DNA of 64,000 nt from the IMG/VR virus record IMGVR_UViG_3300032401_001693, positions 1 through 64,000 of that record. The stretch is one strand, 5' to 3'. How positions within the stretch are numbered: position 1 is the first letter of the stretch; each line of letters starts with the position of its first letter. Below the pieces are notes generated by a model. That model saw nothing but the letters and a program-made list of their open reading frames with translations. It was not told the origin of the DNA and made no database searches. Made by a program: the position numbers and the translations under genes. The stretch comes from a virus. Positions 5,795 through 64,000 of this stretch are shown here, one piece after another.

Positions 5795-7240
5795 TTGGAG
5801 ACCCTTGTTGAAATAGTAGATAAAGACAAGAAGACTGTCCCCTTCATACTAAACCCACCCCAAGTCCGCTACTACAGAAATCGAACCTTCCGAGATATCA
5901 TTTTAAAACCGAGACAATTAGGATTCTCAACGGTTATCATGGGTCTGTTTCTACATGAAACCATGTATGTGCCTAATACCGTATCTGTTATAGTTGCGCA
6001 TACCTCAAATGATTCTGCAGATCTGTTCGATAGAGCCAGATTTATGTATAGTTCGGTTCCAGAAGTATTTAGGCCTTCATACAGGCGCTCCAACAGGAGG
6101 GAGCTATTCTTTGAGAAAATTAACTCAAGGTTTTATATAGGTTCTGCGGAGGCTAAGGATTTTGGATTATCTAAGACTATCAATAATCTACACTGCTCTG
6201 AGGTTAGTGCCTTGGCTTGGAGGCAGGACATGTTAGATGGTCTTTTAGAGGCAGTTCCTAGAAGTGGTCGTGTAGTTTTAGAGTCTACAGCCCGTGGTGA
6301 AGGAGGACCTTTTCACAAGATCTATGTAGGAGCTAAAGAAGAAACTAACGAGTTTAGAACTCACTACTACAGGTGGTATGAGCACAAGGAATACCAAGTG
6401 GCGCTTCATCCAGGTGAGAGAATGTCACTAGACGGAGAAGAACAGGATTTAGTAGATAGAGTGGGTTTATCATTAGCGCAGATTAAATGGAGAAGGGAAA
6501 AAGTATCTAGATTAGGTAAAATGTTTATCCAATGGTATCCTGAACTCGAGGATGAGGATGCTTTTATAAGGTCAGGAAGTCCAGTGTTTGATACTGAATT
6601 TCTAAAACTAAGAGATAAACAGCTATTGGAACAAAATCCTACGGAGATCTGGTTAGGTGGTGATTTGTATATCTATCGGGTAGCAGAGGCGGGTGCTAGA
6701 TATTATATAGGGGTTGATCCATCTGAGGGTGACATAAATTCAGACTATTCAGCCGCTATGGTTGTGCGTGGTTGGCCACTTCCAGTTGAACAGGTAGCAT
6801 TATTACATGGTCGTTGGACACCAGATATACTAAGTGAAAAGGTTTATAGAATAGGAATGGCGTATAATAAGGCTATGTTGGTGGTAGAAAGGAATAACCA
6901 TGGTCATGCGGTTATTCTAAATCTAACTAACGGAATAGTTAGACAGGGTGTAGTAAAATATCCGCCCTATCCTCAGATCTTTGTAGGTCCAGATAGGAAG
7001 TTAGGATTTTTAACTTCTAGTTCTTCCAAACCTCAGATCATCCAAGAGATAGATAGGGAGATGAGAAGTGGCGGACTAATAGTGAATTCTAAGACCTTCA
7101 TATCTGAGGCTAAGAAGTTTCAGTTTCTTAAGCAGGATAGGATGGGAGCAGCGTCTGGTACTCATGATGATGTGGTGATGGCCGCAGCTTTGGCGTTGGC
7201 AGGAGTGGGGTTAGGTGGATTTGATTTTAGCTTCACGTAA
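5795..7240 (+). CDS. terL: terminase large subunit
   Basis: Walker A LKPRQLGFST, Walker B LHCSE, ESTARG coupling motif, RNase H IGVDPSEG, VERNNHG, HDDVVMA. Confidence 0.95.
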   Translation: METLVEIVDKDKKTVPFILNPPQVRYYRNRTFRDIILKPRQLGFSTVIMGLFLHETMYVPNTVSVIVAHTSNDSADLFDRARFMYSSVPEVFRPSYRRSNRRELFFEKINSRFYIGSAEAKDFGLSKTINNLHCSEVSALAWRQDMLDGLLEAVPRSGRVVLESTARGEGGPFHKIYVGAKEETNEFRTHYYRWYEHKEYQVALHPGERMSLDGEEQDLVDRVGLSLAQIKWRREKVSRLGKMFIQWYPELEDEDAFIRSGSPVFDTEFLKLRDKQLLEQNPTEIWLGGDLYIYRVAEAGARYYIGVDPSEGDINSDYSAAMVVRGWPLPVEQVALLHGRWTPDILSEKVYRIGMAYNKAMLVVERNNHGHAVILNLTNGIVRQGVVKYPPYPQIFVGPDRKLGFLTSSSSKPQIIQEIDREMRSGGLIVNSKTFISEAKKFQFLKQDRMGAASGTHDDVVMAAALALAGVGLGGFDFSFT

Positions 7241-16236: not shown

Positions 16237-17031
16237 ATGAGACGAGTAAGGAGTTACGCAGATTGGGACAAAGACGTGAAACTTGATCGTGATGTGAGGC
16301 AGTCTCCAGCGCCTATAAACCATAAAAGAATAGAAGCAGTTACAGTATGTGTAAACTATGGGGACTTTTTAGCTCATACTATTTTATGGAATAAAGCACT
16401 CTTCGACAAATGGGTCATAGTAACTTCTCCAGTAGATATTCATACTAGGCGATTGTGTGAGTTTCATAATGTTGAGTGTATTCTTACTAATGCTTTTTTT
16501 GAAGAGGGAATGATAATCAACAAAGCTAAAGGCATAAATGTAGGGTTCAATAAATTGAAAGGTGAAGACTGGGTCTTACACATAGATGCCGATATGGTTT
16601 TGCCCCCTTTGTTTAGGCACACTATAGATAAAATAGCCCTAGACACTGAAGTTTTATACGGCATAGATAGGATGATGTGTAATAATAGGAAAGACTGGGA
16701 TAAGTTTGTGGAAGATCCTATTATCCAAATGGAAGCAGGAGTATTTGTCCACTTTGAACCATTTCATCTGTCACCAAGGATCTATCAGCCAGAACGTGGT
16801 GGGTATGTTCCTATAGGATTTTTTCAGTTGTTCCATTCTAGTGCTTCTTCATTGGGTGGTAAATTAGAATACCCTACTACTCCAGCTGGGGTGGATAGGA
16901 CAGATATGGAGTTTGCATTGAAATGGCCAGGTTCTTTGAGGAGGTTATTACCAGAGTTTGTGGCTATTCATTTAGCTACTGCTAACACTGGTGGGGCTAA
17001 CTGGGAAGGTAGAAGGACAGCTAAATTCTAG
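16237..17031 (+). CDS. glycosyltransferase family 2-like protein
   Basis: VTVCVNY.DFL, NKAKGINVG, WVLHIDAD, GFFQLFH. Confidence 0.75.
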   Translation: MRRVRSYADWDKDVKLDRDVRQSPAPINHKRIEAVTVCVNYGDFLAHTILWNKALFDKWVIVTSPVDIHTRRLCEFHNVECILTNAFFEEGMIINKAKGINVGFNKLKGEDWVLHIDADMVLPPLFRHTIDKIALDTEVLYGIDRMMCNNRKDWDKFVEDPIIQMEAGVFVHFEPFHLSPRIYQPERGGYVPIGFFQLFHSSASSLGGKLEYPTTPAGVDRTDMEFALKWPGSLRRLLPEFVAIHLATANTGGANWEGRRTAKF

Positions 17032-17991: not shown

Positions 17992-18981
17992 ATGGAAAAG
18001 GGAATAGTCAGAACGTTGGATGAAGTTTTAGAAAAAGGTAGAGGTCCTGATAAGCAACCCAGGAAGAGAAGTCATAGAAAGCACCTTACTTTGGGTGAAT
18101 TGAAGCACTGGAAAGAAACCAGTAATCCATACCGCACAGAAGAGAAGCATAAGAGACATGTGGAAGAAAGAAGGTTAAAGGACAAGAAGGTTGCTATGGT
18201 AGAGCACTTGGAGAAATCTAACTCTACGCCTAAACTAACCAAAGATGAGGCACGAGAATGGTTGAATCTAAAAATTAGACAGTGGACTAAGAGCGGGATC
18301 CAAAGTTGTCCAAAAAAGGAAGGTCAAGGTCCTACTGTTGATAAGATCTCTAATCGTATTTGGGAGAGGCTGGTAGATGAGTGGGGTTATAATCCGACGA
18401 TTCTTAGTGCTTGTCGGGCTGTAAACTGTGATCAGGAGTATGTAACCTCAATAGTTTCTAGTTTCTTTGATATGGATGGGAAACCTTTTGAGATAAAAGA
18501 CGAACATGACTTAGTAGGTATGGAACCTAAACAGGCTGAGCAGTATGCTGATACGGCTAGACCGTATTATGCTTCTTTGGTTTCTCTTGACGAAGCTGTA
18601 TTGGAGAAAGCAAGAACTAAGGGAGCTAAAGATAAGGAAAAGAGAAAGAGAAAGTATCATCCTGGAAGTATAGCTGGTTATCTCGAAGAGAACCCAGCAG
18701 ATAGAAGAAAGAGAAGTGCTTCTAGAATAGCCAGGGCATCTGAAGCTAAAACCAGGAAACACGAAAATGCTGGATTTGAGAAGCTTTGGGATACTGAGGT
18801 CAAGAAATCGAACTCAACACCCAACGAGGCCGTATTGGAGAAGTCTAAAGGTGGCTTTAGACTTGCAAGAGGAGAAAAGGGAGAAGAAGAAAAGAAGAGT
18901 ACTAAAAAAGAGAGGAAAGCTGAAGGCCGTAGCTATCATGTAGAACGATTAGTAGAAAGAACTAAAGAAAGGAACAATTAG
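17992..18981 (+). CDS. multi-module leader-family protein
   Basis: LDEVLEK|GRGPDK, LEK|SNSTP, LDEAVLEK|ARTKGAKDK, VLEK|SK modules. Confidence 0.7.
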   Translation: MEKGIVRTLDEVLEKGRGPDKQPRKRSHRKHLTLGELKHWKETSNPYRTEEKHKRHVEERRLKDKKVAMVEHLEKSNSTPKLTKDEAREWLNLKIRQWTKSGIQSCPKKEGQGPTVDKISNRIWERLVDEWGYNPTILSACRAVNCDQEYVTSIVSSFFDMDGKPFEIKDEHDLVGMEPKQAEQYADTARPYYASLVSLDEAVLEKARTKGAKDKEKRKRKYHPGSIAGYLEENPADRRKRSASRIARASEAKTRKHENAGFEKLWDTEVKKSNSTPNEAVLEKSKGGFRLARGEKGEEEKKSTKKERKAEGRSYHVERLVERTKERNN

Positions 18982-18989
18982 GAGGTTTT

Positions 18990-19919
18990 ATGCCAAAAGA
19001 AGGTATGCACATCAGTGTGCCTAAACCGAAACCCAAAACTCCTAAACTATATGAGTTTGAGGATGCCTACAGAAGAGGTATTTGTAAGGATGCTATCCTG
19101 GTTGGTATCCAGGCAAAAAATACTCCCATTCATCAAGGCCATATTGAGTTGATAGAGTTTGCTCACACTCTTGGTAGGGTAGTAGTTCAGATAAATATGA
19201 ACTCGCTTGAGTATATTGGTTTTCTAGCCACTGGAGAAAAAAGAACGTCAGTTAAGGAGGATATAGGATTGGAGGTTGCCTCAATCGGAGAGGTTGGGGT
19301 TTCTGATATAGTGCTAAAAAGACACGAGGTTGATTCTATTTCTGAAAGTGAGAGGGAGGATAGGAAAGCCAGAGCAGATAGGGTACTACAGGTTTTGAAA
19401 AATGTCTACATTTCTGATACTAGGATGAATCAGTGTCGCATAAGGTTCATGCAGTATCATGATAGTATGAAGAGAATACCTCGTGGGCAGTTGCCAAAGA
19501 TAGCTGTATTAGGTCCCGAGTTGGAAAACTTTTTTGTAAAGGCGGCACTTAAGCATATAGCTTCACTTGGTCATCCAGTGGTAGACCAGATAGTTATTTT
19601 TCCAAAGGTGGTGAAAGATGAGTATGGGTTAAGGTTTAGAACCAGCTACCCAAAGGTGATAGGTGCGGATGAAATAGATTTGCTTAGAACTCTACCTCCA
19701 AAAGTAGACCAGCTAAGGAAGGATTTTCATATTGGTACTAATCCAGAAGTGGTAATACGTGAAAATGCTCTTCTACCTAAAGATTCAAAGTGGAGATACT
19801 GGGAAATTATTATATATGAAGGGGAATTTTTTGGTAACGGTAGGTTGGAATCTGTGACTTTCGGATTACAAATTGAGAATGGGATACATCTTATAGAGGA
19901 GATTAGTTATGTTAAGTAA
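18990..19919 (+). CDS. pantoate-beta-alanine ligase (PanC)-like HIGH-family adenylating enzyme
   Basis: PIHQGHIELI..A...VVVQI; LGPE; P.VVKDEYGL. Confidence 0.5.
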   Translation: MPKEGMHISVPKPKPKTPKLYEFEDAYRRGICKDAILVGIQAKNTPIHQGHIELIEFAHTLGRVVVQINMNSLEYIGFLATGEKRTSVKEDIGLEVASIGEVGVSDIVLKRHEVDSISESEREDRKARADRVLQVLKNVYISDTRMNQCRIRFMQYHDSMKRIPRGQLPKIAVLGPELENFFVKAALKHIASLGHPVVDQIVIFPKVVKDEYGLRFRTSYPKVIGADEIDLLRTLPPKVDQLRKDFHIGTNPEVVIRENALLPKDSKWRYWEIIIYEGEFFGNGRLESVTFGLQIENGIHLIEEISYVK

Positions 19920-20628
19920 AGAATGGGCGAGGTTAGTACCGGTGGGTGGTATTGTTGTTCATCAGGATGTGCTTTACAAGGATGCCAATGATGTTCATCT
20001 AGAAGAAAGAAACCAGGTTAAGAAACTTTTTTATGAAGATAGAGAATATATGAGTTTGATTGGGGTGGGATTACCACGCTATACCACTATGGGGCTTAAT
20101 AAGCAGTTTGCTGTATATATCTATAACCATGGTGACGACCTGGTTGGGCTTATCGTAGGCTATGAATTGCTAAAAAATCCTGATGGATATGGAAAAGATG
20201 ACTACTTTTATGCAAAATTAGTGCACCCAAAGTATAGACGATCAAAGTATTCTAGGCACATGGAATCGGCTTTTTTCTATATGATATTCTTTTCGGGTGT
20301 TGCAAAAAGATTATATACTTATGCTCCATATACAGGTGATGATACTAATCTTTTAACCATGATGGATTTGAAACGAATGCCTTGTTCTTCTGCTGGTTTG
20401 GGCTGTACTGGGTGGGGGACAAAGTTTTGTGATTTTATGTCGATTCCAAAAAAGGTACAGGTTTATGGAAAGCCTCACGTTATACTGCAACTTGACGGTG
20501 ACATGTATAGGGGACTAGAGGAGAAGGATTTCATAGAAGCGGCGCCAGATAAGGATCCTCAGGTAATTAGAGATTGGTTGAAAGATGTTAACAAAGGATC
20601 AACAGCAATTAGAGAAATTCAGAAATGA
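19909..20628 (+). CDS. GNAT-like protein
   Basis: LVGLIVG...LVHPKYRRSKYS resembles motif A. Confidence 0.45.
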   Translation: MLSKEWARLVPVGGIVVHQDVLYKDANDVHLEERNQVKKLFYEDREYMSLIGVGLPRYTTMGLNKQFAVYIYNHGDDLVGLIVGYELLKNPDGYGKDDYFYAKLVHPKYRRSKYSRHMESAFFYMIFFSGVAKRLYTYAPYTGDDTNLLTMMDLKRMPCSSAGLGCTGWGTKFCDFMSIPKKVQVYGKPHVILQLDGDMYRGLEEKDFIEAAPDKDPQVIRDWLKDVNKGSTAIREIQK

Positions 20629-21665
20629 ACACTTTAACTTTATTTGTCAATATATCTAATGAATGCCAAAAGAAGTGTGATCATTGCTACTCTTCAAATT
20701 CTGGTGGTAAAATGGATAGGAAGGTAGTAGAAGAAGTAGTAGGATGGTCTTCAGGTATTTTTAAAGAGGAGAAGTCTAAAAAGTTGAAGCTAGTTTTATT
20801 GGGAGGAGAACCTTTAACTAATATGGATAACTGCTTATACATGGTTGATCTGTTCGAAAGGTATGTCCCTGAGGCTCTACCTCCTGTTTTTGATGTTAAA
20901 TATACACTGGCAACTAATGGAGATTTGATCACGACAGAAGTTTTAAAAGAACTTAAATCTAGAGGTATAAGAATTGCTCTTAATCCATCATATGATAGCC
21001 TTCAAGATGTAGAAAATAAAATTTTGAAAATTAAAGAAGTATGTAAAGGCTGTGCTTTATTTGTTTGTCTCAATGATGCTAACTTATCAAGGGCTACTGA
21101 GATAGCTAAATTGGCTGTAAAGCATAACTGCTTTATTAGAATAAACCGAATGTACCAAGGGTCAAATAATTCTGAATACATAGAGGAATATGGAAGGAAA
21201 GCATCAGAGATGCTAGATGTGTTACTGGCTTTTCCGAAACCAGCTTGGCCTAACTGGGTTATAGATTCAGTTTTTCCTTTGAGACTTAATGGGAATAAGA
21301 ATTCTTATTCCTGCGGAAAGGGATTGTTTGTAGTGGATTGGGATGGAATGCTGAGGAGTTGCAACCCAGACTATGACTCAACTATTGGAAGCATTAGGAC
21401 TCATTTACATTTGAAAGATTTTATATTTCCTCAAAAATGGAACGCTGAGGATTTGTCAGAATGTAAGGAGTGTAGCTGGTTAAATTTATGCCAAGGAGGA
21501 TGTCCGTACACTAGAAAGATAGCCTATGGAATTTATGGTAGGAAGACCCCATTTTGTGAAGTTCATAAGAAAATATGGCCCAAACTTTTGGAATTGACTG
21601 AGAAGTGGAAAAACTCCCACAGAGAGCTATATGAAAAATTTACATATAATAATGTATGTCAGTAA
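20625..21665 (+). CDS. radical SAM/SPASM enzyme
   Basis: CQKKCDHC, GGEP, TNG; C-terminal CKEC..LNLCQGGCP..C. Confidence 0.9.
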   Translation: MNTLTLFVNISNECQKKCDHCYSSNSGGKMDRKVVEEVVGWSSGIFKEEKSKKLKLVLLGGEPLTNMDNCLYMVDLFERYVPEALPPVFDVKYTLATNGDLITTEVLKELKSRGIRIALNPSYDSLQDVENKILKIKEVCKGCALFVCLNDANLSRATEIAKLAVKHNCFIRINRMYQGSNNSEYIEEYGRKASEMLDVLLAFPKPAWPNWVIDSVFPLRLNGNKNSYSCGKGLFVVDWDGMLRSCNPDYDSTIGSIRTHLHLKDFIFPQKWNAEDLSECKECSWLNLCQGGCPYTRKIAYGIYGRKTPFCEVHKKIWPKLLELTEKWKNSHRELYEKFTYNNVCQ

Positions 21666-22671
21666 CAGATGCAATAGAAGTTGTCCAGAATGCTACTATC
21701 CGCATGGAGATGGTGTAATGACTTCTGAGGTAATGGATAAAGTATCTAACTGGATTATTTCTACTTGCCAAGATGAAAAAGTAAAATGGGTGAAAGTTAA
21801 CTTCCTTGGTGGTGAGCCTATAATGGATAAGGAAATAATTTTTTCTATACTGAATAAGCTAGAAGAGGGACTGCCTTTTCATACGAGGGCACATCCAGAA
21901 TATAAGTATAGTGTATTTACTAATGGGGACTTTATTACTAGCGAATTTCTTCACAAAGCTAAGCAGTTTGATTTAAGAGTATGTATAAATCCAGCTACTG
22001 CTTCTTTGGGTGAAGTGGAGGATAAGATTCAAAAGGTTCTTAGTGTACTTACTCATTGTGGGTTAGCTCCAGTCTTTGATGAGCTGAATATGGGAAGAGC
22101 CAAAGAACTGGCTGAATTAGCGGTTAAGTATGATTGTTCTACTTTAAGAATCAATAGGCTATATGATGGAGCTAATAGAGAAGGATATTTGACTAAGTAC
22201 AAGAAGGCTATGCATGATGTTTTTGATGTTCTTTTATTTGCTCCAAAGCCTATATATCCTAATTCAATAATGGAAACGACTTATCCTGTGTATCCAGGAA
22301 CTATAATCCCACTGACCAAAGGAGACAATCCATACTGCTGTGGTTCGTGGTTGGCAATCATAGATTGGGATGGAACTTTGAGAAGTTGTAACCCTGATTT
22401 ATCAACAGTTGTAGGGCACATAGACACTCATAAGTTTAGTGATCTAAGGTTTCCTCAACGGTGGTCAGCCGAAGGTTTCGAAGAGTGTCAAGTTTGTCAA
22501 TGGGTAGATGTGTGCCAAGCGGGTTGTCCTTACACAAGAAAACTTACTTATGGTACCTATAATAAGAAAACTCCATTTTGTGAGGCATTTAAGGAACTTT
22601 TTCCTAGATTGTTTCAGTTAACTGAAAAGTGGAGGAACTATAAGATCTCCTCTATAAGATGTATCCCATAA
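21631..22671 (+). CDS. radical SAM/SPASM enzyme (paralog)
   Basis: CNRSCPEC, GGEP, TNG; CQVC..VDVCQAGCP..C. Confidence 0.9.
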   Translation: MKNLHIIMYVSNRCNRSCPECYYPHGDGVMTSEVMDKVSNWIISTCQDEKVKWVKVNFLGGEPIMDKEIIFSILNKLEEGLPFHTRAHPEYKYSVFTNGDFITSEFLHKAKQFDLRVCINPATASLGEVEDKIQKVLSVLTHCGLAPVFDELNMGRAKELAELAVKYDCSTLRINRLYDGANREGYLTKYKKAMHDVFDVLLFAPKPIYPNSIMETTYPVYPGTIIPLTKGDNPYCCGSWLAIIDWDGTLRSCNPDLSTVVGHIDTHKFSDLRFPQRWSAEGFEECQVCQWVDVCQAGCPYTRKLTYGTYNKKTPFCEAFKELFPRLFQLTEKWRNYKISSIRCIP

Positions 22672-22698
22672 AAGAGGCTAATCTCAGGAGGTAGAAAG

Positions 22699-24000
22699 AT
22701 GTCGAATGGTTATAGTGGGTTTGTTCCAGATTGGGGAGCATCAGGTAATATTCTAAAAAGTGATGGTACTAAATGGATATCTTCAAGCTCTATAGATATA
22801 AAGTCTTTAGACATGGGAGCAGCTCAGTACACTATTCCGTGGCCGGTAGGGGTGACTCCAGATCCTGCTCTTGGTCATGCCTACTATAAATCAGATACTA
22901 AGCAACTATTAATAGGAGATGGTGTAACTGCTAATCCAGTAAGTGGAGGGTCTTCAGGCTATAGTGGCTATAGTGGCAGGTCAGGCTACTCAGGAGTAGG
23001 AATACTGGGTATCTCAGGTTATTCCGGGTATAGTGGTAGGTCGGGTTTTTCAGGGTTAAATGGAATAGCTACAGCTTCTGGATATTCAGGATATTCAGGA
23101 GTAGGAGGTCTAGGTGTTTCGGGCTATTCTGGCAAAGGTGGATCTAATTTTGTTCATAACCAGGTTGTGAATTCTACTACTTGGATTATAAACCATAATT
23201 TAGGAATGAGGGAGGTTTTAGTTCAGGTATTTAATAGTACTGGTAATCAAATAATTCCTCAATCAGTCGTTTGGGGAACTGCTAATCAGTGTATTATTTC
23301 ATTATCTACTGCCACTATAGGAACGGCAGTAGTTTCTAGTGGTGGTGGGGTATCAGGTTTTTCAGGATATTCGGCGTTAGGAGGATCAGGCACTGGTATA
23401 TCTGGTTATTCTGGTTATTCTGGCCCACAAGGATTTATGGGAGTGCCAGGAGCAGGTGGTCAGTCTGGGTTTAGTGGCTGGTCAGGCAAAGATGGTCAAT
23501 TAGGTATATCTGGATTTTCAGGACCTCAGGGAGGGACTGGTATTCAAGGTTATTCTGGATTTAGCGGGTACTCAGGACCTCAAGGATTTGTAGGATATGG
23601 TATATCTGGTTATAGTGGTAAAGATGGTCAAGCTTCTGCTTCTGGGTATTCTGGGTTTTCCGGTTTAGGAGTTTCTGGGTGGAGTGGATTTAGTGGACTA
23701 ACTGGACCGCAGGGAGTACCAGGAACTACTGGGGTAGGAGTTAGTGGGCTCTCAGGCTATTCAGGAGCGTCTGGAACTGGAGGAGGTACAAGCAGGTATC
23801 TTTCAACTAGGTTTACTAGTTCTTCAGTGGTAACTGTTTCTCATAATTTTGGTGTTATTCCTAATGTGGTTGTGGTAAGAGATAGGACTGATGGGAAATG
23901 GGATGTAATTAATCCAAGGCTTATAGTTCATAGCAACTTTAACCAAGTGACAGTTACTTTACAATGGTCTGTTACTGGTTATGTTATTTGTAACGCATAA
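22699..24000 (+). CDS. (SGY/SGF)n glycine-rich fibre/collagen-like virion protein
   Basis: Gly every third residue; beta domains HNLG/HNFG. Confidence 0.7.
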   Translation: MSNGYSGFVPDWGASGNILKSDGTKWISSSSIDIKSLDMGAAQYTIPWPVGVTPDPALGHAYYKSDTKQLLIGDGVTANPVSGGSSGYSGYSGRSGYSGVGILGISGYSGYSGRSGFSGLNGIATASGYSGYSGVGGLGVSGYSGKGGSNFVHNQVVNSTTWIINHNLGMREVLVQVFNSTGNQIIPQSVVWGTANQCIISLSTATIGTAVVSSGGGVSGFSGYSALGGSGTGISGYSGYSGPQGFMGVPGAGGQSGFSGWSGKDGQLGISGFSGPQGGTGIQGYSGFSGYSGPQGFVGYGISGYSGKDGQASASGYSGFSGLGVSGWSGFSGLTGPQGVPGTTGVGVSGLSGYSGASGTGGGTSRYLSTRFTSSSVVTVSHNFGVIPNVVVVRDRTDGKWDVINPRLIVHSNFNQVTVTLQWSVTGYVICNA

Positions 24001-24237
24001 GGAGTGTATGAATAGTTTTCCGAATGGTCTTAGACAGATAGAAGGTATGCACCTAGATCTATTGGGAATAGAAATAGGTTTGTTTGAAGGTTATATAGGG
24101 AACTACGTGGTGATAATGCGGGATGGTGATAAGGTAAAGGGTATTTCCTGTTTATCTTTGGAGCACGCAATGGAGATTTACTCAGGTTGTGTAGAAAGAG
24201 TTAGGATTAGATATTTATTAAACTAAGGAGGCTTAAT

Positions 24238-24348: not shown

Positions 24349-24752
24349 GGCTCTTAGAAGAGCTTATGAAAAACGCATTAAGCAGGGTAACTTAGATTAG
24401 TTTGATTGTGGAGGTTGACATGCCCGCATTATTTTTGTAAAAGGATAAAAAATATGTCAGCTCTTTTTATTGTAAAAGTTAAACTTATAGAAAGCAAGCT
24501 CACTAAGGAATCTAAACCAGCCATCTCGTTTATGAAACCTGAAATGCCTTATGGTGTGTTAGATGTCTATACTTGGCACAAAACGGATAAGGAAACTGGA
24601 GTAGTAACAGTTTATTCTAGATTTCTTATAGGAGATCACGAGTCAGGGGAGATTCATCAGGTAGATCCAAGAGGGGTTCTGTTTGTAGGAGTAGCGTAGG
24701 AGAGGAATATGTATGATGCATATGGAAAGAGTAAGAAACCTAAGGAGTAGTT

Positions 24753-27700
24753 ATGGCGATATTTGATTTTCTATTTAAGGGCAAGATTGACCAGGAAGTG
24801 GTCAAAAGAGTCACTGAAGTTGAGCAGCGGATGGTTGAGGTCTCTGACCAGAAGGTTCAGGAGAAGGCTAGAGAGCTTACAGCCCAATGGCAAGAGCAGC
24901 TTAGAAAAGCCCAAGAAACTGCAGAGGCTAAGTCTTTGCTTCGAGATCCATTTCAGCTTTTGGAGACACTGAAATATAAAGAGCGCCCTATGATGTTGAC
25001 CTATGAGGTTTTGAGATCAATGTCAGAAAGGAATCCTATTATAGCGGCAATTATAAATACTAGGGTTAATCAGGTCTCAGCTTTTTCTTCACCTCCTAAA
25101 TCTCCCTATGATGTAGGTTTTCAGATTGTTTTGAAAAATAGGAAAGAGAAGCCAGATAAAAACGATGAAACTCGGATGGAAGAAATCCAGAATATGGTTT
25201 CCAATACTGGAGTTTCTTCACTTTTACAAGAAGAGCGGGATAACTTCGATACCTATCTAAGGAAAGTAACGAGGGACAGTCTTACCTATGACCAAATGGC
25301 CTATGAAATTATAAACGGAAGAGGAAACTATCCTGTGGCGTTTTTGGCGATAGACGCATCTTCCATTAGGTTGGCTACTACGGCCAGGTATTTCAAAGAT
25401 ATAATGGGTTTGAGAGGTTTTGCTGCACCACCTAAGATAGAGACTGATATGGGATCTATCCAAAAGGAATCTCTTAGACCAGAAGATATAAGGTATGTTC
25501 AGATTATAGATAGTAGAGTAATGACTACCTACACTGAGCAGGAGTTAGGGTTTGGTATTCGTAATCCAAGAACGGCTCTTAGGCAGAATGGTTATGGAGT
25601 GTCTGAGTTAGAGATACTGGTTAATACTGTTACGGCTCATCTTTGGGCAGAAGAATATAATCGCCGAGCCTTTTGTCTGAGTCTTAGAAATTATTGTAGA
25701 ACTAAGGCAGGAGTCTTTCAACTCAAGGATCTAATAGGTAAAACGTTTGAAGTTTGGAATGGTAGAGATTGGGCAAAAGCTAGGGCTTTTGCAACAGGAA
25801 TTAGACCTTTAGTACGTACTAAGTTGTGGAATGGTTTAGAACTAGAAACAAGCCCAGAGCATAAGTTTTATGTGATCCCTAAGGACACAGTTACAGGAGA
25901 ACCTGAGTGGAAAGAACAAAAGGATCTACAGCCGGGTGATTACGCTTTACTCAGTTGTCAAGATTGTGATTTTCCTATGAACTATGATTTACTGAAGGTT
26001 GGAAAACTGTATGGAGAACCTAAGAAGGTTTCTGTTTGGGTTGAACCTCATACTAAAGAGCAGAAAGACCAGGCGGTGAAACATAATGGTCATTTTCAAA
26101 CTATAGGAAATCAGTATTCTAAAACCTTATCTAGGATAGAAGTTCGCCCGTACACCCAGATTTTAAAGTCAAAAACTATAGAAGTTTCCGGCTACGAAAT
26201 GAATTTTACTCCTTATGATAGAGGAAAACAATGGATCCCTACCAAAGAAGTAGTTGAAGATCCTGAGTTTTGGAAAATGATTGGATTTGCTTTGGGGGAT
26301 GGATACTGGGGTAAGAGTTCATTACCAATAGCTCCTAACCCATACCGAGAGTATGACATAACAGAGAGATTTTCCAGTGTGTGTCAGAAATATAATATAC
26401 AGCACACAAAAAGTAGTGAGGGAATTTGTATTAGACACAAAGGTGTTCTAGAGTGGTTGTACGATCTGGGATTCGTTTCAACAGAGGATTCTAAAAAGGA
26501 TGATAGATGTATACCGCCGGTTTTCTTTCGATTGCCTTCTTGGATAAGATGCGCACTGCTTAGTGGTTTATTTAGTGCGGATGGAACCAATGAGGGGTAT
26601 AGATGGGCAGGAACACCAAGTTTTGGTGTTAAAGGAGTTAGATTTAGATTAAGTGTTCTCAAGTGTCTGTGGTCAGTAGGTGTGGCTTCCAACCAAAGAG
26701 GTAGCGGTTGGAGAATTGAACATGGTGGTATTTTAGTTCAAGATGTGGCAGCTTTTGCTAGGAAGATTGGATTTCTACAAACTGATCCTAAATCTATAAA
26801 ATCTAGAGATAATTTGGTTAGATCTGAAAGTTCTAAAAGTAGATGGGATAGACTTCATCCTACTTTATCTAAAATTTTAGCAAATAAAATCTATGATGAA
26901 CATAGGAAATATTCTACAAATGGAAGTAACCAGTACGAAAAGAAAGGTATTGGCAATAGCCCACTTTCCAAGAGAGATGGGTGGTTGATTGTAGGGGCTT
27001 CTTGTGGTGGTCATAAGCTTAGTCGTCCCAGAGCGATAGGTATGTTAGAGAGTTTAGGATTGGAAGTTCCAGAATGGCTTAGAACTTTTATGCAAACTCC
27101 TGTAGACGTTTTGGATAAAGAACCTATTGGGTATGAGCCAATGGGGGATATAGAAGTTTTTGATGACAAGCATCTATTTTTAGCTAATTTTGTTGCTGTC
27201 CATAATTCGCAAGGTTCTGCTCCTAAGGGTATAATTCAACTTGAGGGTAATGTACCGCAGGATCAATTAAATGAGTTTAGGCGACAATGGCATGCTCAGA
27301 TTATGGGAGTTTTTAATGCTTGGAGAACTCCTATTATCAATACTCCATCTGGTAAGTTAAACTATGTTGATCTTTCTAGGAGCAACAAACAGATGGAATA
27401 TTCTAATTGGATAGACTATTTGATTAAGATAGCTTGTGCAGTTTATCTGATAGACCCCTCTGAGATAGGTTTTGATATGAGAGGTGGAGCCCAGACAGCT
27501 CAGCCTCCGGTGTTTGAGTCCCACGGTGAATCCAAGCAGAAGATGTCTAGAGACAAAGGTCTTAGGCCGTTACTTAGGTTTCTACAGACTGAGGTTAATA
27601 AAGACATAGTATATAGAGTATATGATGGGAGGTATGAGTTTGAGTTTGTGGGTTTGGACGCCAAAACGGAGGAGCAGCTTCAAGAGATGCGTCTAAAAGA

Positions 27701-27953
27701 GGTTCAGAACTTTAAGACTATAGATGAGATTAGGGCTGAGTATGATCTTAAACCATTAGGTCATGATATGGGCGGTGATGTAATAATGAATTCTGCTTAT
27801 TTGAGCTATTTGAATCAGCTGGCAATGCAAAAAATGCAGGAAGGACAGGGTGGAGGTCCTGGAGGTGGTGAAGATTTTGGTCAAGAGGAAGGTGCAGAAG
27901 GCGAGGAGCAACCAGACTTTGGAGAAGAGATGACACAAGGTGAAGAAAAATAG
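24753..27953 (+). CDS. portal protein with intein
   Basis: AIINTRVNQV, DSLTYDQ, YGVSELE, F|S.GSAPKGII, KGLRPLL, TIDEIR. Confidence 0.92.
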   Translation: MAIFDFLFKGKIDQEVVKRVTEVEQRMVEVSDQKVQEKARELTAQWQEQLRKAQETAEAKSLLRDPFQLLETLKYKERPMMLTYEVLRSMSERNPIIAAIINTRVNQVSAFSSPPKSPYDVGFQIVLKNRKEKPDKNDETRMEEIQNMVSNTGVSSLLQEERDNFDTYLRKVTRDSLTYDQMAYEIINGRGNYPVAFLAIDASSIRLATTARYFKDIMGLRGFAAPPKIETDMGSIQKESLRPEDIRYVQIIDSRVMTTYTEQELGFGIRNPRTALRQNGYGVSELEILVNTVTAHLWAEEYNRRAFCLSLRNYCRTKAGVFQLKDLIGKTFEVWNGRDWAKARAFATGIRPLVRTKLWNGLELETSPEHKFYVIPKDTVTGEPEWKEQKDLQPGDYALLSCQDCDFPMNYDLLKVGKLYGEPKKVSVWVEPHTKEQKDQAVKHNGHFQTIGNQYSKTLSRIEVRPYTQILKSKTIEVSGYEMNFTPYDRGKQWIPTKEVVEDPEFWKMIGFALGDGYWGKSSLPIAPNPYREYDITERFSSVCQKYNIQHTKSSEGICIRHKGVLEWLYDLGFVSTEDSKKDDRCIPPVFFRLPSWIRCALLSGLFSADGTNEGYRWAGTPSFGVKGVRFRLSVLKCLWSVGVASNQRGSGWRIEHGGILVQDVAAFARKIGFLQTDPKSIKSRDNLVRSESSKSRWDRLHPTLSKILANKIYDEHRKYSTNGSNQYEKKGIGNSPLSKRDGWLIVGASCGGHKLSRPRAIGMLESLGLEVPEWLRTFMQTPVDVLDKEPIGYEPMGDIEVFDDKHLFLANFVAVHNSQGSAPKGIIQLEGNVPQDQLNEFRRQWHAQIMGVFNAWRTPIINTPSGKLNYVDLSRSNKQMEYSNWIDYLIKIACAVYLIDPSEIGFDMRGGAQTAQPPVFESHGESKQKMSRDKGLRPLLRFLQTEVNKDIVYRVYDGRYEFEFVGLDAKTEEQLQEMRLKEVQNFKTIDEIRAEYDLKPLGHDMGGDVIMNSAYLSYLNQLAMQKMQEGQGGGPGGGEDFGQEEGAEGEEQPDFGEEMTQGEEK
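25674..27206 (+). mobile_element. intein with LAGLIDADG endonuclease (511 aa)
   Basis: Starts CLSL, ends AVHN|S; IGFALGDG and LSGLFSADG motifs. Confidence 0.9.
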
Positions 27954-60798: not shown

Positions 60799-63700
60799 AT
60801 GGCTACTTTAGATAAAAAGCTAGGTCAACTACCAGAAGTTACTGTTCCTAAGTCAGATGACATTGTCTATATAGTTACTGATCCTGCCACTCGTCCTGCT
60901 GACAAAAAGATAAAAATATCTAATCTATCTTCGGTTTTGGGAACTAGTGGGTACTCAGGGTATAGTGGTATATCTGGAGCCTACGGTGACTCTGGATTTT
61001 CAGGATTTTCAGGGATAGATGGTCAGTATGCTGGGCAAGGTGTTTCCGGTTATTCTGGATATTCAAGTGCGGCGGAAGGTCCACAGGGGCCAATAGGCTT
61101 TTCTGGGTTTTCAGGCTATAGTGGTGAGATTGGCTTTTCTGGCTATTCAGCTTATTCTGGATATTCAAGCCAGCAACCAGGTCCACAAGGTCCAGTAGGA
61201 TTTACTGGGGAATCTGGTTATTCGGGATACTCTGGTCTAGGACTGTCAGGATACTCTGGTGCTTCTGGTTACTCTGGTGTTGGTACTTCTGGTTACTCTG
61301 GTGTTGGAATCTCAGGTTATTCTGGAAGGTCTGGGTATAGTGGTATCTCTGGGATGGGAGTATCTGGCTACTCTGGCTATTCTAGCGAGATGGAAGGACC
61401 TCAAGGTCCAATAGGATTCACGGGAGAGTCAGGGTACTCAGGAGATTTAGGAATCTCTGGTTATTCAGGATATTCAAGTCCAGGTTCTTCAGGATATTCT
61501 GGGTACAGTTCTGTGGTTCCTGGAACCTCAGGCTATTCAGCTTATAGTGGGTACTTAGGAAGTTCTGGATATAGTGGCAGTTCTGGATATTCTGGATACT
61601 CAGGACAAGGAGTTAGTGGATACTCAGGATACTCAAGTACAGTCGTAGGACCTCAAGGTCCAATCGGGTTTTCTGGTTACTCAGCTTATAGTGGCTATTC
61701 TAGTGTTTCAGGTTATAGTGGCTACTCAGGTTATTCTAGTTCTAGTGGATACTCTGGATACTCAAGTATTTCCGGATATTCTGGATACTCAAGCGTGAGC
61801 GGTTATTCAGGATATTCTAGTATTTCAGGTTACTCAGGTTACTCGGCCTATTCTGGGTATAGTGGGTATGATGCGGGTGCAGCATATAGTGGGTATAGTG
61901 GGCCTTCTGGGTATAGTGGCTATTCTGGGATAAGTGGCTATAGTGCCTATTCCGGGATAAGTGGCTATAGTGCCTATTCCGGGTATAGTGGCATTTCCGG
62001 TTATAGTGGTTACTCAAGCACTGTGGTGGGTCCTTCAGGTTATTCTGGTTACTCAGGTCCATCTGGTCTTGGCTATTCAGGTTGGTCTGGAATTTCTGGT
62101 TACTCGGCTTATTCTGGTGTAGGAACTTCCGGATATTCAGGTTATTCGGGTGTAGGGACTTCTGGTTACTCAGGTTACTCAAGTGCTGTAGTGGGTGTTT
62201 CAGGCTATTCAGGATATTCAAGTCCAGGTAGTTCTGGATACTCAGGCTACTCTGGTTTAGGAGGATCAGGTTATTCTGGGTATTCAAGTGCTGTGGTGGG
62301 TCCTTCAGGTTATTCTGGTTACTCAGGTCCCTCTGGTCTCGGCTATTCAGGTTGGTCTGGAAGGTCTGGTTACTCAGGCTACTCAAGTGGAATGCCCGGT
62401 GTATCTGGGTACAGTGGATATTCAGGTGCTCTTCCCGTCTATGGGACATCTGGTAATATACTACAAAGTAGTGGAAGTGGTTGGATTTCTACTAATCAAC
62501 TTTCTATTGCTTCTATTGATCTTAGTAATGCTACAAGTTCTATTCCTTGGCTAGTTGGGGTTACTGCTGGAGATGCGGCTTCTGGTCATGCCTACTATAA
62601 ATCAGATACTAAGCAACTGTTAATAGGAGATGGTGTAACTGCTAATCCAGTAAGTGGAGGTTCTTCAGGATATTCTGGATATTCAAGTCCAGGTAGTTCT
62701 GGTTACTCAGGTTATTCAAGTCCCGGAACATCTGGTTATTCTGGTTATTCTGGGTATTCAAGTGCTGTAATAGGACCTTCAGGCTATTCTGGATATTCAA
62801 GTCCTGGAAGTTCTGGATATTCGGCTTACTCAGGTTATTCAGCCCAGCCAGGAGGTTCATCTGGTTATTCTGGTTACAGTGGGTTGGGAGGTTCTGGTTA
62901 TTCTGGTTATAGTGCTGAGAGTCCAGGTCCTTCTGGTTATTCAGGTTATTCCGGTCAGAATGGCACAATCGGGATAAATGGAACTTCGGGTTATTCAGGT
63001 TATTCCGGTGGTGGAGCCAACTATGTGCATACCCAGAGCGGGGCTTCTACCTCTTGGACTGTTTCTCACAATCTAGGTAATTTGGAAGTTATTGTTCAGG
63101 TGTTTGATGGAAGTAATAACCAAGTTATTCCAAAATCAGTTGTTTGGGATACTGTTAATCAATGTACTATCACGTTCTCTTCAGCTGTCGCTGGGAAGGC
63201 AGTAGTATCCAGCGGTGGTGGAGTATCTGGATTTTCTGGAAAGTCTGGTTACTCAGGTTATTCTGGAATTTCCGGATATTCAGGGTATTCTGGGCAGGGG
63301 TGGTCAGGTTGGTCAGGTTATTCTGGGTATAGTGGTAAGTCTGGGTACAGTGGATATTCTGGATATAGTGGTGGGTCGGGATATAGTGGCTACTCAAGTG
63401 CTGTGATAGGTCCTTCAGGCTATTCTGGATATTCAAGTCCTGGAAGTTCTGGTTACTCTGGTTACTCAAGCCCTGGAAGTTCTGGATACTCAGGTTACTC
63501 AAGTCTAGGAAGTTCTGGCTATTCTGGTTACTCAAGTCCTGGAAGTTCTGGATACTCAGGTTATAGTGCTGAGAGTCCAGGTCCTTCTGGCTATTCTGGG
63601 TATTCTGGTTATTCAAGTGAGGGAACTTCTGGATTTTCTGGTGTAAGTGGATATTCAGGAGTAGGGACTTCTGGTTATTCAGGCTATAGTGGCTATTCGG

Positions 63701-64000
63701 GCAAATCTGGATATAGTGGATATTCAGGTGGAAGTGGATATAGTGGAATTTCAGGTTACTCAGCTTATAGTGGCTATTCTGGAATTAGCGGTCAACAAGG
63801 TGTTGGTTATTCGGGTTTTTCAGCTTATTCTGGTTATTCTGGTTACTCGGCCTATTCTGGAAAATCAGGATATAGTGGCTACTCAGGTGTGGGTCCTTCA
63901 GGTTATTCTGGTTACAGTGGGTTGGGAGGTTCTGGATACTCAGGTTATAGTGCTGAGAGTCCAGGTCCTTCTGGCTATTCTGGTTATTCGAGTACAAGCG
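60799..64000 (+). CDS. large (SGY)n glycine-rich fibre protein, 3' partial
   Basis: Not in ORF track; ATG 60799 (MATLDKKLGQL) and no stop seen to the window end; paralog of 22699-24000. Confidence 0.85.
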   Translation, partial: MATLDKKLGQLPEVTVPKSDDIVYIVTDPATRPADKKIKISNLSSVLGTSGYSGYSGISGAYGDSGFSGFSGIDGQYAGQGVSGYSGYSSAAEGPQGPIGFSGFSGYSGEIGFSGYSAYSGYSSQQPGPQGPVGFTGESGYSGYSGLGLSGYSGASGYSGVGTSGYSGVGISGYSGRSGYSGISGMGVSGYSGYSSEMEGPQGPIGFTGESGYSGDLGISGYSGYSSPGSSGYSGYSSVVPGTSGYSAYSGYLGSSGYSGSSGYSGYSGQGVSGYSGYSSTVVGPQGPIGFSGYSAYSGYSSVSGYSGYSGYSSSSGYSGYSSISGYSGYSSVSGYSGYSSISGYSGYSAYSGYSGYDAGAAYSGYSGPSGYSGYSGISGYSAYSGISGYSAYSGYSGISGYSGYSSTVVGPSGYSGYSGPSGLGYSGWSGISGYSAYSGVGTSGYSGYSGVGTSGYSGYSSAVVGVSGYSGYSSPGSSGYSGYSGLGGSGYSGYSSAVVGPSGYSGYSGPSGLGYSGWSGRSGYSGYSSGMPGVSGYSGYSGALPVYGTSGNILQSSGSGWISTNQLSIASIDLSNATSSIPWLVGVTAGDAASGHAYYKSDTKQLLIGDGVTANPVSGGSSGYSGYSSPGSSGYSGYSSPGTSGYSGYSGYSSAVIGPSGYSGYSSPGSSGYSAYSGYSAQPGGSSGYSGYSGLGGSGYSGYSAESPGPSGYSGYSGQNGTIGINGTSGYSGYSGGGANYVHTQSGASTSWTVSHNLGNLEVIVQVFDGSNNQVIPKSVVWDTVNQCTITFSSAVAGKAVVSSGGGVSGFSGKSGYSGYSGISGYSGYSGQGWSGWSGYSGYSGKSGYSGYSGYSGGSGYSGYSSAVIGPSGYSGYSSPGSSGYSGYSSPGSSGYSGYSSLGSSGYSGYSSPGSSGYSGYSAESPGPSGYSGYSGYSSEGTSGFSGVSGYSGVGTSGYSGYSGYSGKSGYSGYSGGSGYSGISGYSAYSGYSGISGQQGVGYSGFSAYSGYSGYSAYSGKSGYSGYSGVGPSGYSGYSGLGGSGYSGYSAESPGPSGYSGYSSTS

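Follow-up and report, generated by a model that had tools for sequence, protein, structure and literature searches.

A PanC-fold, GNAT-fold and SPASM radical SAM cassette beside a collagen-like repeat protein in a tailed phage: a candidate system for the maturation of virion fibres

The stretch of DNA analysed here (the window) covers positions 1 to 64,000 of an IMG/VR record of 101.8 kb from an uncultured large phage (IMGVR_UViG_3300032401_001693; G000), and it carries a block of five plus-strand genes that we examined as a putative protein-modification cassette. The first encodes a 309-aa PanC-fold, ATP-dependent ligase-like protein of the HxGH (HIGH) type (18990-19919, +), and the second a 239-aa GNAT-fold protein, P239 (19909-20628, +), directly upstream of a radical S-adenosylmethionine (SAM) gene. 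These are followed by two 346-aa radical SAM/SPASM enzymes, rSAM1 (20625-21665, +), a member of the clade we refer to as rSAM330, and its paralogue rSAM2 (21631-22671, +). The fifth gene (22699-24000, +) encodes GYS433, a collagen-like protein of 433 aa built on (Gly-aromatic-Ser)n, or GYS, repeats. The four enzyme genes overlap successively by 11, 4 and 35 nt, a 27-nt spacer with an AGGAGG Shine-Dalgarno sequence separates the rSAM2 and GYS433 genes, and simple promoter and terminator scans inside the block returned matches at chance level only. Together, these features make it likely that the five genes are co-transcribed. An earlier, sequence-only reading had described four overlapping genes followed by a Ser-Gly-Tyr repeat protein; this layout was correct, with the spacer at 27 nt, and its four enzyme calls (PanC-like, GNAT and two SPASM radical SAM enzymes) all hold at the level of fold.

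The two radical SAM proteins are paralogues with 41% identity. In both, the SAM-cluster motif CX3CX2C is present as C15-x3-C19-x2-C22, and the seven-cysteine SPASM pattern, which serves two auxiliary 4Fe-4S clusters, is complete (C230..G241x4C246, C280x2C283x5C289x3C293, C311) and invariant in our alignment (A1). The TIGR04085 (SPASM) scores were 40.6 bits for rSAM1 and 33.0 bits for rSAM2, with a cut-off of 27. For the radical SAM domain (PF04055, cut-off 29.5), rSAM1 scored 35.4 bits and rSAM2 27.2 bits, slightly under the threshold; rSAM2 exceeded the cut-off of Fer4_12 (29.6 bits against 22). About 50 peptide-maturase models in NCBIfam matched both proteins at 25-67 bits, among them PapB, Clo7bot, QhpD, CefB, YhhB/XyeB, DynA and anSME, and all of these scores lay far under the respective cut-offs. 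The top match was PapB (NF047865), at 66.7 bits for rSAM1 versus a cut-off of 340, and the best scores of the two proteins (66.7 and 61.3 bits) fell short of membership in any maturase equivalog, for which the NCBIfam cut-offs are 340-600. The nearest solved proteins by sequence were CteB (5wgg, E 4e-11) and then anSME (4k36). Because the maturase-type matches are all this far below their cut-offs, rSAM1 and rSAM2 are, by profile comparison, SPASM maturase-type enzymes outside every named family. All of the top family matches are to maturases of peptides or proteins, and not to the cofactor or nucleotide enzymes that the sequence-only reading had named as its counter-case.

The resemblance to known peptide maturation systems has clear limits. 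We found no N-terminal RRE domain, the recognition element of enzymes acting on RiPPs (peptides made on ribosomes and modified after translation): the cluster motif begins at residue 15, and matches to RRE-bearing maturases begin at about positions 80-100 in their profiles. The block contains no leader-core precursor and no small Cys-rich or repeat open reading frame (ORF) of the kind that classical RiPP clusters carry. Triceptide maturases (XyeB/YhhB/FxsB/GrrM) scored 28-48 bits against cut-offs of 370-450, and the triceptide motif needs a beta carbon on its third residue, where the Tyr-Ser-Gly unit has Gly. In our tree, the nearest orthologue of rSAM1 was that of locus L003 (9998-11032; 59% identity, support 100), and rSAM2 grouped with L003:4751-5914, L004 and L005 in one six-row clade.

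The 309-aa protein had no Pfam match, PF02569 included, at E<=0.1, and a weak match to the cytidylyltransferase model TIGR00125 at its HxGH site. An AlphaFold model built with five homologues as input (predicted local distance difference test score, pLDDT, 77.8) was more informative: the top 40+ Foldseek matches were all pantothenate synthetases (E 4e-9, TM 0.55-0.6) and covered both domains. The protein thus shares with PanC the two-domain fold over its whole length, an invariant H48-x-G50-H51 site and a KDxxG[IL]xxxSS motif corresponding to the KDxxGLxxxSS-type phosphate-binding motif. It differs from PanC in being only 10-16% identical to it, in lacking the PF02569 match, and in its setting, which is a putative protein-maturation cassette and not coenzyme A (CoA) biosynthesis. 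An N-terminal extension of 34 aa (window 18990-19091) is absent from all homologues, and its segment KLYEFEDAYRRG loosely resembles the LDEEFEKARG leader of an upstream mini-protein family.

P239 had no match in Pfam (including PF00583), NCBIfam or PHROG. Its model (pLDDT 81) matched the GNAT acetyltransferase fold (Foldseek E 5e-5, TM by target about 0.64), and the position of the acyl-CoA loop reads PKYRxTKYSRY, without the usual glycines (Q/R-x-x-G-x-G/A expected). A word-based homologue search with P239 returned only the protein itself; an exhaustive profile search of 1.84 billion representatives recovered about 58 clusters (E<=1e-10). One of the proteins in our set, P0014 (614 aa), is a fusion in which the GNAT-fold partner domain occupies residues 382-611 behind an N-terminal 380 aa without a Pfam match, and this fusion could point to the working companion of the GNAT-fold partner.

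GYS433 contains 26 G-[YFW]-S triplets, and in six runs, of up to 23 triplets, every third residue is Gly. The Pfam Collagen model (PF01391) matched at 44.8 bits (cut-off 27.2), and a beta domain of about 70 aa in the middle of the protein breaks up the repeats, with a related domain at the C-terminus. Collagen-like tail-fibre proteins occur in phages and prophages, such as those of E. coli O157 (PMC3368898). GYS433 is like these proteins in its Gly-X-Y repeats interrupted by globular domains and in its matches to phage tail-fibre PHROGs, and differs from them in that the X position is nearly always aromatic (Tyr, Phe or Trp), the Y position is mostly Ser, and Pro and charged residues are few. 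A large GYS collagen-like fibre of 1189 aa is encoded at 60799-64368 (+), extending beyond the window end at 64000; the sequence-only reading had named the ORF starting at 60799 as a potential further target, and this protein has 157 G[YFW]S triplets, Ser at the Y position of 130 triplets, and the same central domain as GYS433. GYS433 is a paralogue of part of this fibre, with about 60% identity over the N-terminal part and central domain, one identical stretch of 33 residues, and DNA that is 79% identical over 219 nt. The contig ends inside a third GYS gene (G000 100290-101811), which has at least 79 triplets.

The closest lineage relatives of this phage (L301/L302, in G031 and G032), whose capsid is 76% identical, show how the block is bounded. 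In these genomes the orthologue of 17992-18981 directly abuts the orthologues of 23981-24226 and 24406-24699, followed by the portal gene, so that 18982-23980, comprising the enzymes and GYS433, forms a single five-gene indel block missing from the relatives. None of the enzymes and no Cys repeats of the type described below were found in G031 or G032. This is best explained if all five genes entered as a single accessory module at a site just upstream of the portal gene; the inserted block brings GYS433 and no Cys gene.

Beyond this lineage, the cassette enzymes form a rare family seen in metagenomes only. For the rSAM330 clade we found 7 IMG/VR loci and 20 from JGI metagenomes, and nucleotide and protein searches of 50,697 cultured-phage records found no relatives of the radical SAM or GNAT-fold proteins. 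rSAM1 falls inside this clade by tree and retains its upstream GNAT-fold partner by synteny; indeed, a GNAT-fold gene stands directly upstream of the rSAM330-clade gene in nearly all related loci, and a PanC-fold gene is usually present. Many loci add a PapB-like radical SAM enzyme, roughly 410 aa long (261 bits with the PapB model), and further radical SAM proteins. The related cassettes sit in tail/fibre gene neighbourhoods, and 0-3.7 kb away in 13 distinct loci lies a 12-residue Cys repeat, CxCNxxCYGYxx (C-[ST]-C-[ND]-x-[ST]-C-Y-G-Y-x-x), which occurs as a small protein or inserted in fibre, baseplate or gpJ-like tail proteins. The motif is present in all seven related viral records. A CxCNxxCYGY scan of viral contigs gave 52 stretches, only 9 of which had at least two motifs in one frame, most others being single chance matches. 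Phage G007, a complete genome of 37.7 kb, has only the GNAT-fold and rSAM330 genes, immediately behind a 204-aa Cys-repeat protein, and this arrangement defines a minimal core of these two enzymes.

Compared with its Cys-repeat relatives, the cassette in the window is reduced, without the PapB-like enzyme, a B12-type radical SAM enzyme or a "218-aa" protein, and it differs in that the rSAM330 enzyme is present as two paralogues and the target slot is taken by a collagen-like GYS gene. The phage that supplies the nearest rSAM1 orthologue (G001) shares only scattered genes with this one, suggesting that the cassette moves between unrelated phages; for the same reason synteny with G001 was uninformative and we set it aside as evidence. 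Larger cassettes (L035, L043, L046, L042 and L034; for example L035:3946-5169) encode a conserved 365-430-aa protein with a CYWxKCxFC motif, which looks like a further divergent radical SAM enzyme, and clusters of this kind hold up to five radical SAM genes. Several Cys-repeat proteins (L003:3876-4169, L008:8630-9244, L034:353-1687, L044:692-1618 and L041:4094-4663) end in conserved aromatic tails, two with KYAPDVWL[FL]Y and the other three with Y-x-YPW, and these tails may serve in docking or recognition.

The established activity of radical SAM/SPASM enzymes is the stapling of short peptides. To our knowledge, the cross-linking of a large protein by such an enzyme has been described in a single 2026 paper. 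CrpC of Methanococcus voltae, a SPASM enzyme, installs thioether cross-links in the large Cys-rich protein CrpA (PMC13692751, 2026), and this pair is the best precedent for enzyme-installed cross-links in a protein of structural size. It differs from the present system in being archaeal and not viral, in the low scores of its model here (TIGR04463, 36-38 bits), and in the N-terminal domains with which CrpC engages its substrate, which rSAM1 and rSAM2 do not have. The PapB (freyrasin) and CteB maturases of ranthipeptides and SCIFF peptides, the former of which links Cys to Asp/Glu side chains (PMC9413430), provide the best NCBIfam and best solved match, respectively, and share the radical SAM core and the full SPASM domain with two auxiliary clusters; related loci, moreover, have both Cys repeats and a PapB-like enzyme. 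Here, in contrast, the scores are 54-67 bits against the cut-off of 340, the N-terminal RRE and the short leader-core precursor are missing, the 101.8-kb record has no Cys-rich target, and the PanC- and GNAT-fold partners are foreign to ranthipeptide clusters. The anaerobic sulfatase-maturating enzyme anSME acts on a folded-protein substrate, converting Cys or Ser to formylglycine. Its SPASM part (4k36) aligns with the enzymes here (E 3e-8), and it is a case of one enzyme type serving both Cys and Ser; however, the scores of 40-47 bits are well below the cut-off of 349, there is no sulfatase, and GYS433 has no C/S-x-P/A-x-R motif.

We propose that the four enzymes represent a reduced form of a rare phage cassette that would mature repeat-bearing tail or fibre proteins post-translationally, with the GNAT-fold protein and a SPASM radical SAM enzyme as its putative core and the PanC-fold ligase as a frequent extra. 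In related loci the target would be the Cys/Asn/Tyr-rich repeat CxCNxxCYGYxx, and here GYS433 would fill that slot. The SPASM enzymes would abstract hydrogen from a side-chain or backbone carbon of the repeat by means of the SAM-derived 5'-deoxyadenosyl radical, and this radical step would leave the repeat either covalently cross-linked or with an oxidised residue. The PanC-fold enzyme would adenylate a carboxylate and form an amide, and the GNAT-fold protein would transfer an acyl or aminoacyl group or present the substrate.

We infer that the cassette acts on virion protein because the best matches of its enzymes are maturases, because it stands beside tail/fibre repeat genes, and because of the 2026 large-protein precedent; on these grounds a role in virion-protein maturation is probable, the larger share of that probability going to a GYS target and a smaller one to a Cys-repeat target that we do not see. 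The same rare enzymes beside Cys-repeat tail proteins in other phages likewise suggest that those of the window probably modify a virion fibre. Judging from gene content, the GYS collagen-like fibres, GYS433 and possibly the 60799 fibre, are the leading single candidate here, although only tentatively so; we rank them first because the target slot holds GYS433, the block is gained or lost as a unit, and the record has neither a Cys repeat nor a PapB-like enzyme. A more specific and slightly more speculative version is that the SPASM enzymes, with their GNAT-fold partner and PanC-fold ligase, covalently modify a (Gly-Tyr-Ser)n virion fibre after a switch from Cys-repeat targets. A radical cross-link at Tyr or an anSME-like oxidation of Ser would be conceivable reactions. 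The sequence-only reading had envisaged RiPP-like modification of virion fibres; the fibre part gains from the maturase-only best matches, the tail/fibre settings and the single indel block, while the block lacks the marks of a classical RiPP system, and linkage to SGYSG proteins is not supported as a conserved feature, since what is conserved, in 13 loci, is the Cys repeat.

Several observations weigh against GYS433 as the substrate, beginning with that conserved non-enzyme neighbour of the related cassettes. Three genomes that are 95-100% complete (G002, G003 and G004) encode the cassette together with Cys repeats but lack any GYS protein, and L003, the locus of the nearest rSAM1 orthologue, has Cys repeats in a 102-kb record without GYS. 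GYS-triplet repeats are common in viral contigs, with at least 120 stretches, and the co-occurrence expected from the sequence-only reading was absent for such generic proteins: a radical SAM gene was found in 0 of 120 generic GYS loci, and the rSAM330 clade in 0 of 18 whole GYS-bearing contigs, 5 of them complete genomes. We also know of no described SPASM chemistry that fits the Tyr-Ser-Gly unit.

The generic GYS proteins do not contain the central domain of GYS433, which places them in a different subfamily. We had considered the enzyme-free generic loci as a refutation of the link and dropped this argument because those proteins lack the domain; the test was rerun on the domain-bearing subfamily, defined by an alignment of the central domain of GYS433-type proteins (A4). 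In all four loci with A4-domain GYS proteins (the window, L008/G007, L037 and L231/G030), radical SAM/SPASM genes were found no more than 3 kb from the GYS gene. Against this, the L008, L037 and L231 records each encode Cys-repeat proteins as well, so that the GYS proteins may belong to the same fibre module as bystanders, and only three GYS loci are rSAM330-linked, in different subclades of the tree. At L037 (3001-9982), a 746-aa GYS protein lies between two PapB-like radical SAM genes, and next in line are genes for a major facilitator superfamily (MFS) transporter (Pfam, 71.8 bits) and for a 152-aa protein that contains 35 cysteines; such a transporter would not be expected in a phage, and L037 may be a cellular or prophage cluster.

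A bystander role of GYS would lead to the first of two rather unlikely but serious alternatives, namely that the target is a Cys-repeat (CxCNxxCY) tail/fibre protein in an unsequenced part of the genome, with GYS433 a mere neighbouring fibre paralogue. We place it second on account of the family-wide association (the 13 distinct loci and all seven related viral records, together with the 59% identity of rSAM1 to an enzyme of a Cys-repeat locus) and of the incomplete record. CheckV estimated the completeness of the 101.8-kb record at about 53%, which also counts against GYS433, and the record terminates within a repeat gene. This is the third GYS gene, at the contig end, so that the assembly probably broke there and the completeness estimate may be off. 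Yet in relatives the Cys-repeat target lies no more than 3.7 kb away, whereas here we found no Cys-repeat protein within about 4 kb of the cassette, nor over 18.9 kb upstream and 79 kb downstream, and the CxC[ND]xxC motif was absent from every frame of the record. The sole repeat protein within 0-3.7 kb of the cassette is GYS433; this is the gene that the block brings, without a Cys gene, and the usual PapB-like companion was not found in this record.

The second alternative, which we consider comparably unlikely, is that the GYS fibres are O-glycosylated by the phage's own putative sugar island and not modified by the cassette, which could then still have a separate target. Thr-rich collagen-like BclA of Bacillus and giant-virus fibres are glycosylated, and Ser occupies the Y position of 130 triplets in the 1189-aa fibre. 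Downstream of this fibre and of four signal-peptide-like proteins lies an island of about 27 kb (G000 ~73000-100300) with glycosyltransferase-, methyltransferase-, epimerase- and aminotransferase-like genes and three further radical SAM genes (Pfam; 81442, 83435 and 96105). This large island beside the big GYS fibre makes O-glycosylation of the Ser-rich fibres plausible as a separate modification. Our view of the island comes, however, only from the N-terminal sequences of its proteins and a single Pfam search for radical SAM domains, and glycosylation leaves unexplained why GYS433 travels in the indel block of the cassette.

It is improbable, in our view, that the cassette, as an orphan or a decaying accessory module, currently lacks a target in this phage. 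In favour of this reading, the block is missing from the closest relatives, the enzyme set is reduced, and a near-identical sequence from the same sample series (L030, Ga0315295_10359480), which equals window 20522-22022 except for one substitution and a 22-nt deletion, carries rSAM1 frameshifted by that deletion (window 20837-20858), a point that also tells against a working GYS-modifying enzyme. The deletion may mark either a broken-enzyme variant in the population or an assembly error, and could in any case be rare. In the window itself, all four genes are open with their invariant motifs intact, including every catalytic cysteine, and the tree branch of rSAM1 is not longer than those of its orthologues.

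Least likely is the production of a cofactor or other small molecule, such as an amide resembling pantothenate or a cofactor derived from a peptide, that leaves virion proteins untouched: PanC and GNAT folds are typical of small-molecule metabolism, some SPASM enzymes (PqqE, MftC and NirJ) make cofactors, and NirJ and AhbC models are among the weak NCBIfam matches, but the top matches are peptide maturases, the cassette consistently adjoins repeat-bearing tail/fibre genes, and its minimal form in the complete G007 genome is a GNAT-fold and a radical SAM gene beside the 204-aa Cys-repeat protein.

Elsewhere in the window, this tailed phage encodes a large terminase (5795-7240), an intein-bearing portal (24753-27953), a head protease (52380-53642) and the major capsid protein (55200-56630). 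Within the 1066-aa portal, the intein (Pfam Intein_splicing) contains an insert resembling LAGLIDADG (weak match to LAGLIDADG_3); in the closest relatives the portal (L301:7783-9453) is 556 aa long and 56% identical, without the insert. A 264-aa protein encoded 2 kb upstream of the block (16237-17031) has a DADM (DxD-like) motif and a weak nucleotidyl-transferase/GT-A-like Pfam match (E 0.036), and has no counterpart in related cassette loci.

In a full-text literature search we came across no report of a radical SAM enzyme that acts on phage fibres or on a virus particle. What the window contributes is a rare core of PanC-fold, GNAT-fold and SPASM enzymes, an instance of the cassette without its Cys target, and a collagen-like Gly-aromatic-Ser protein that travels with the cassette. 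With the usual Cys target missing and a GYS fibre gained or lost along with the enzymes, the locus is a clean natural experiment on enzyme recognition. If the GYS fibre is not the target, the window still helps to define the rare three-enzyme core. If it is, this would be the first case of a radical SAM enzyme modifying a collagen-type protein, and likewise the first on a virus particle, and it would offer both a new cross-linking chemistry for collagen-like materials and a new route by which phages harden or diversify their host-binding fibres.

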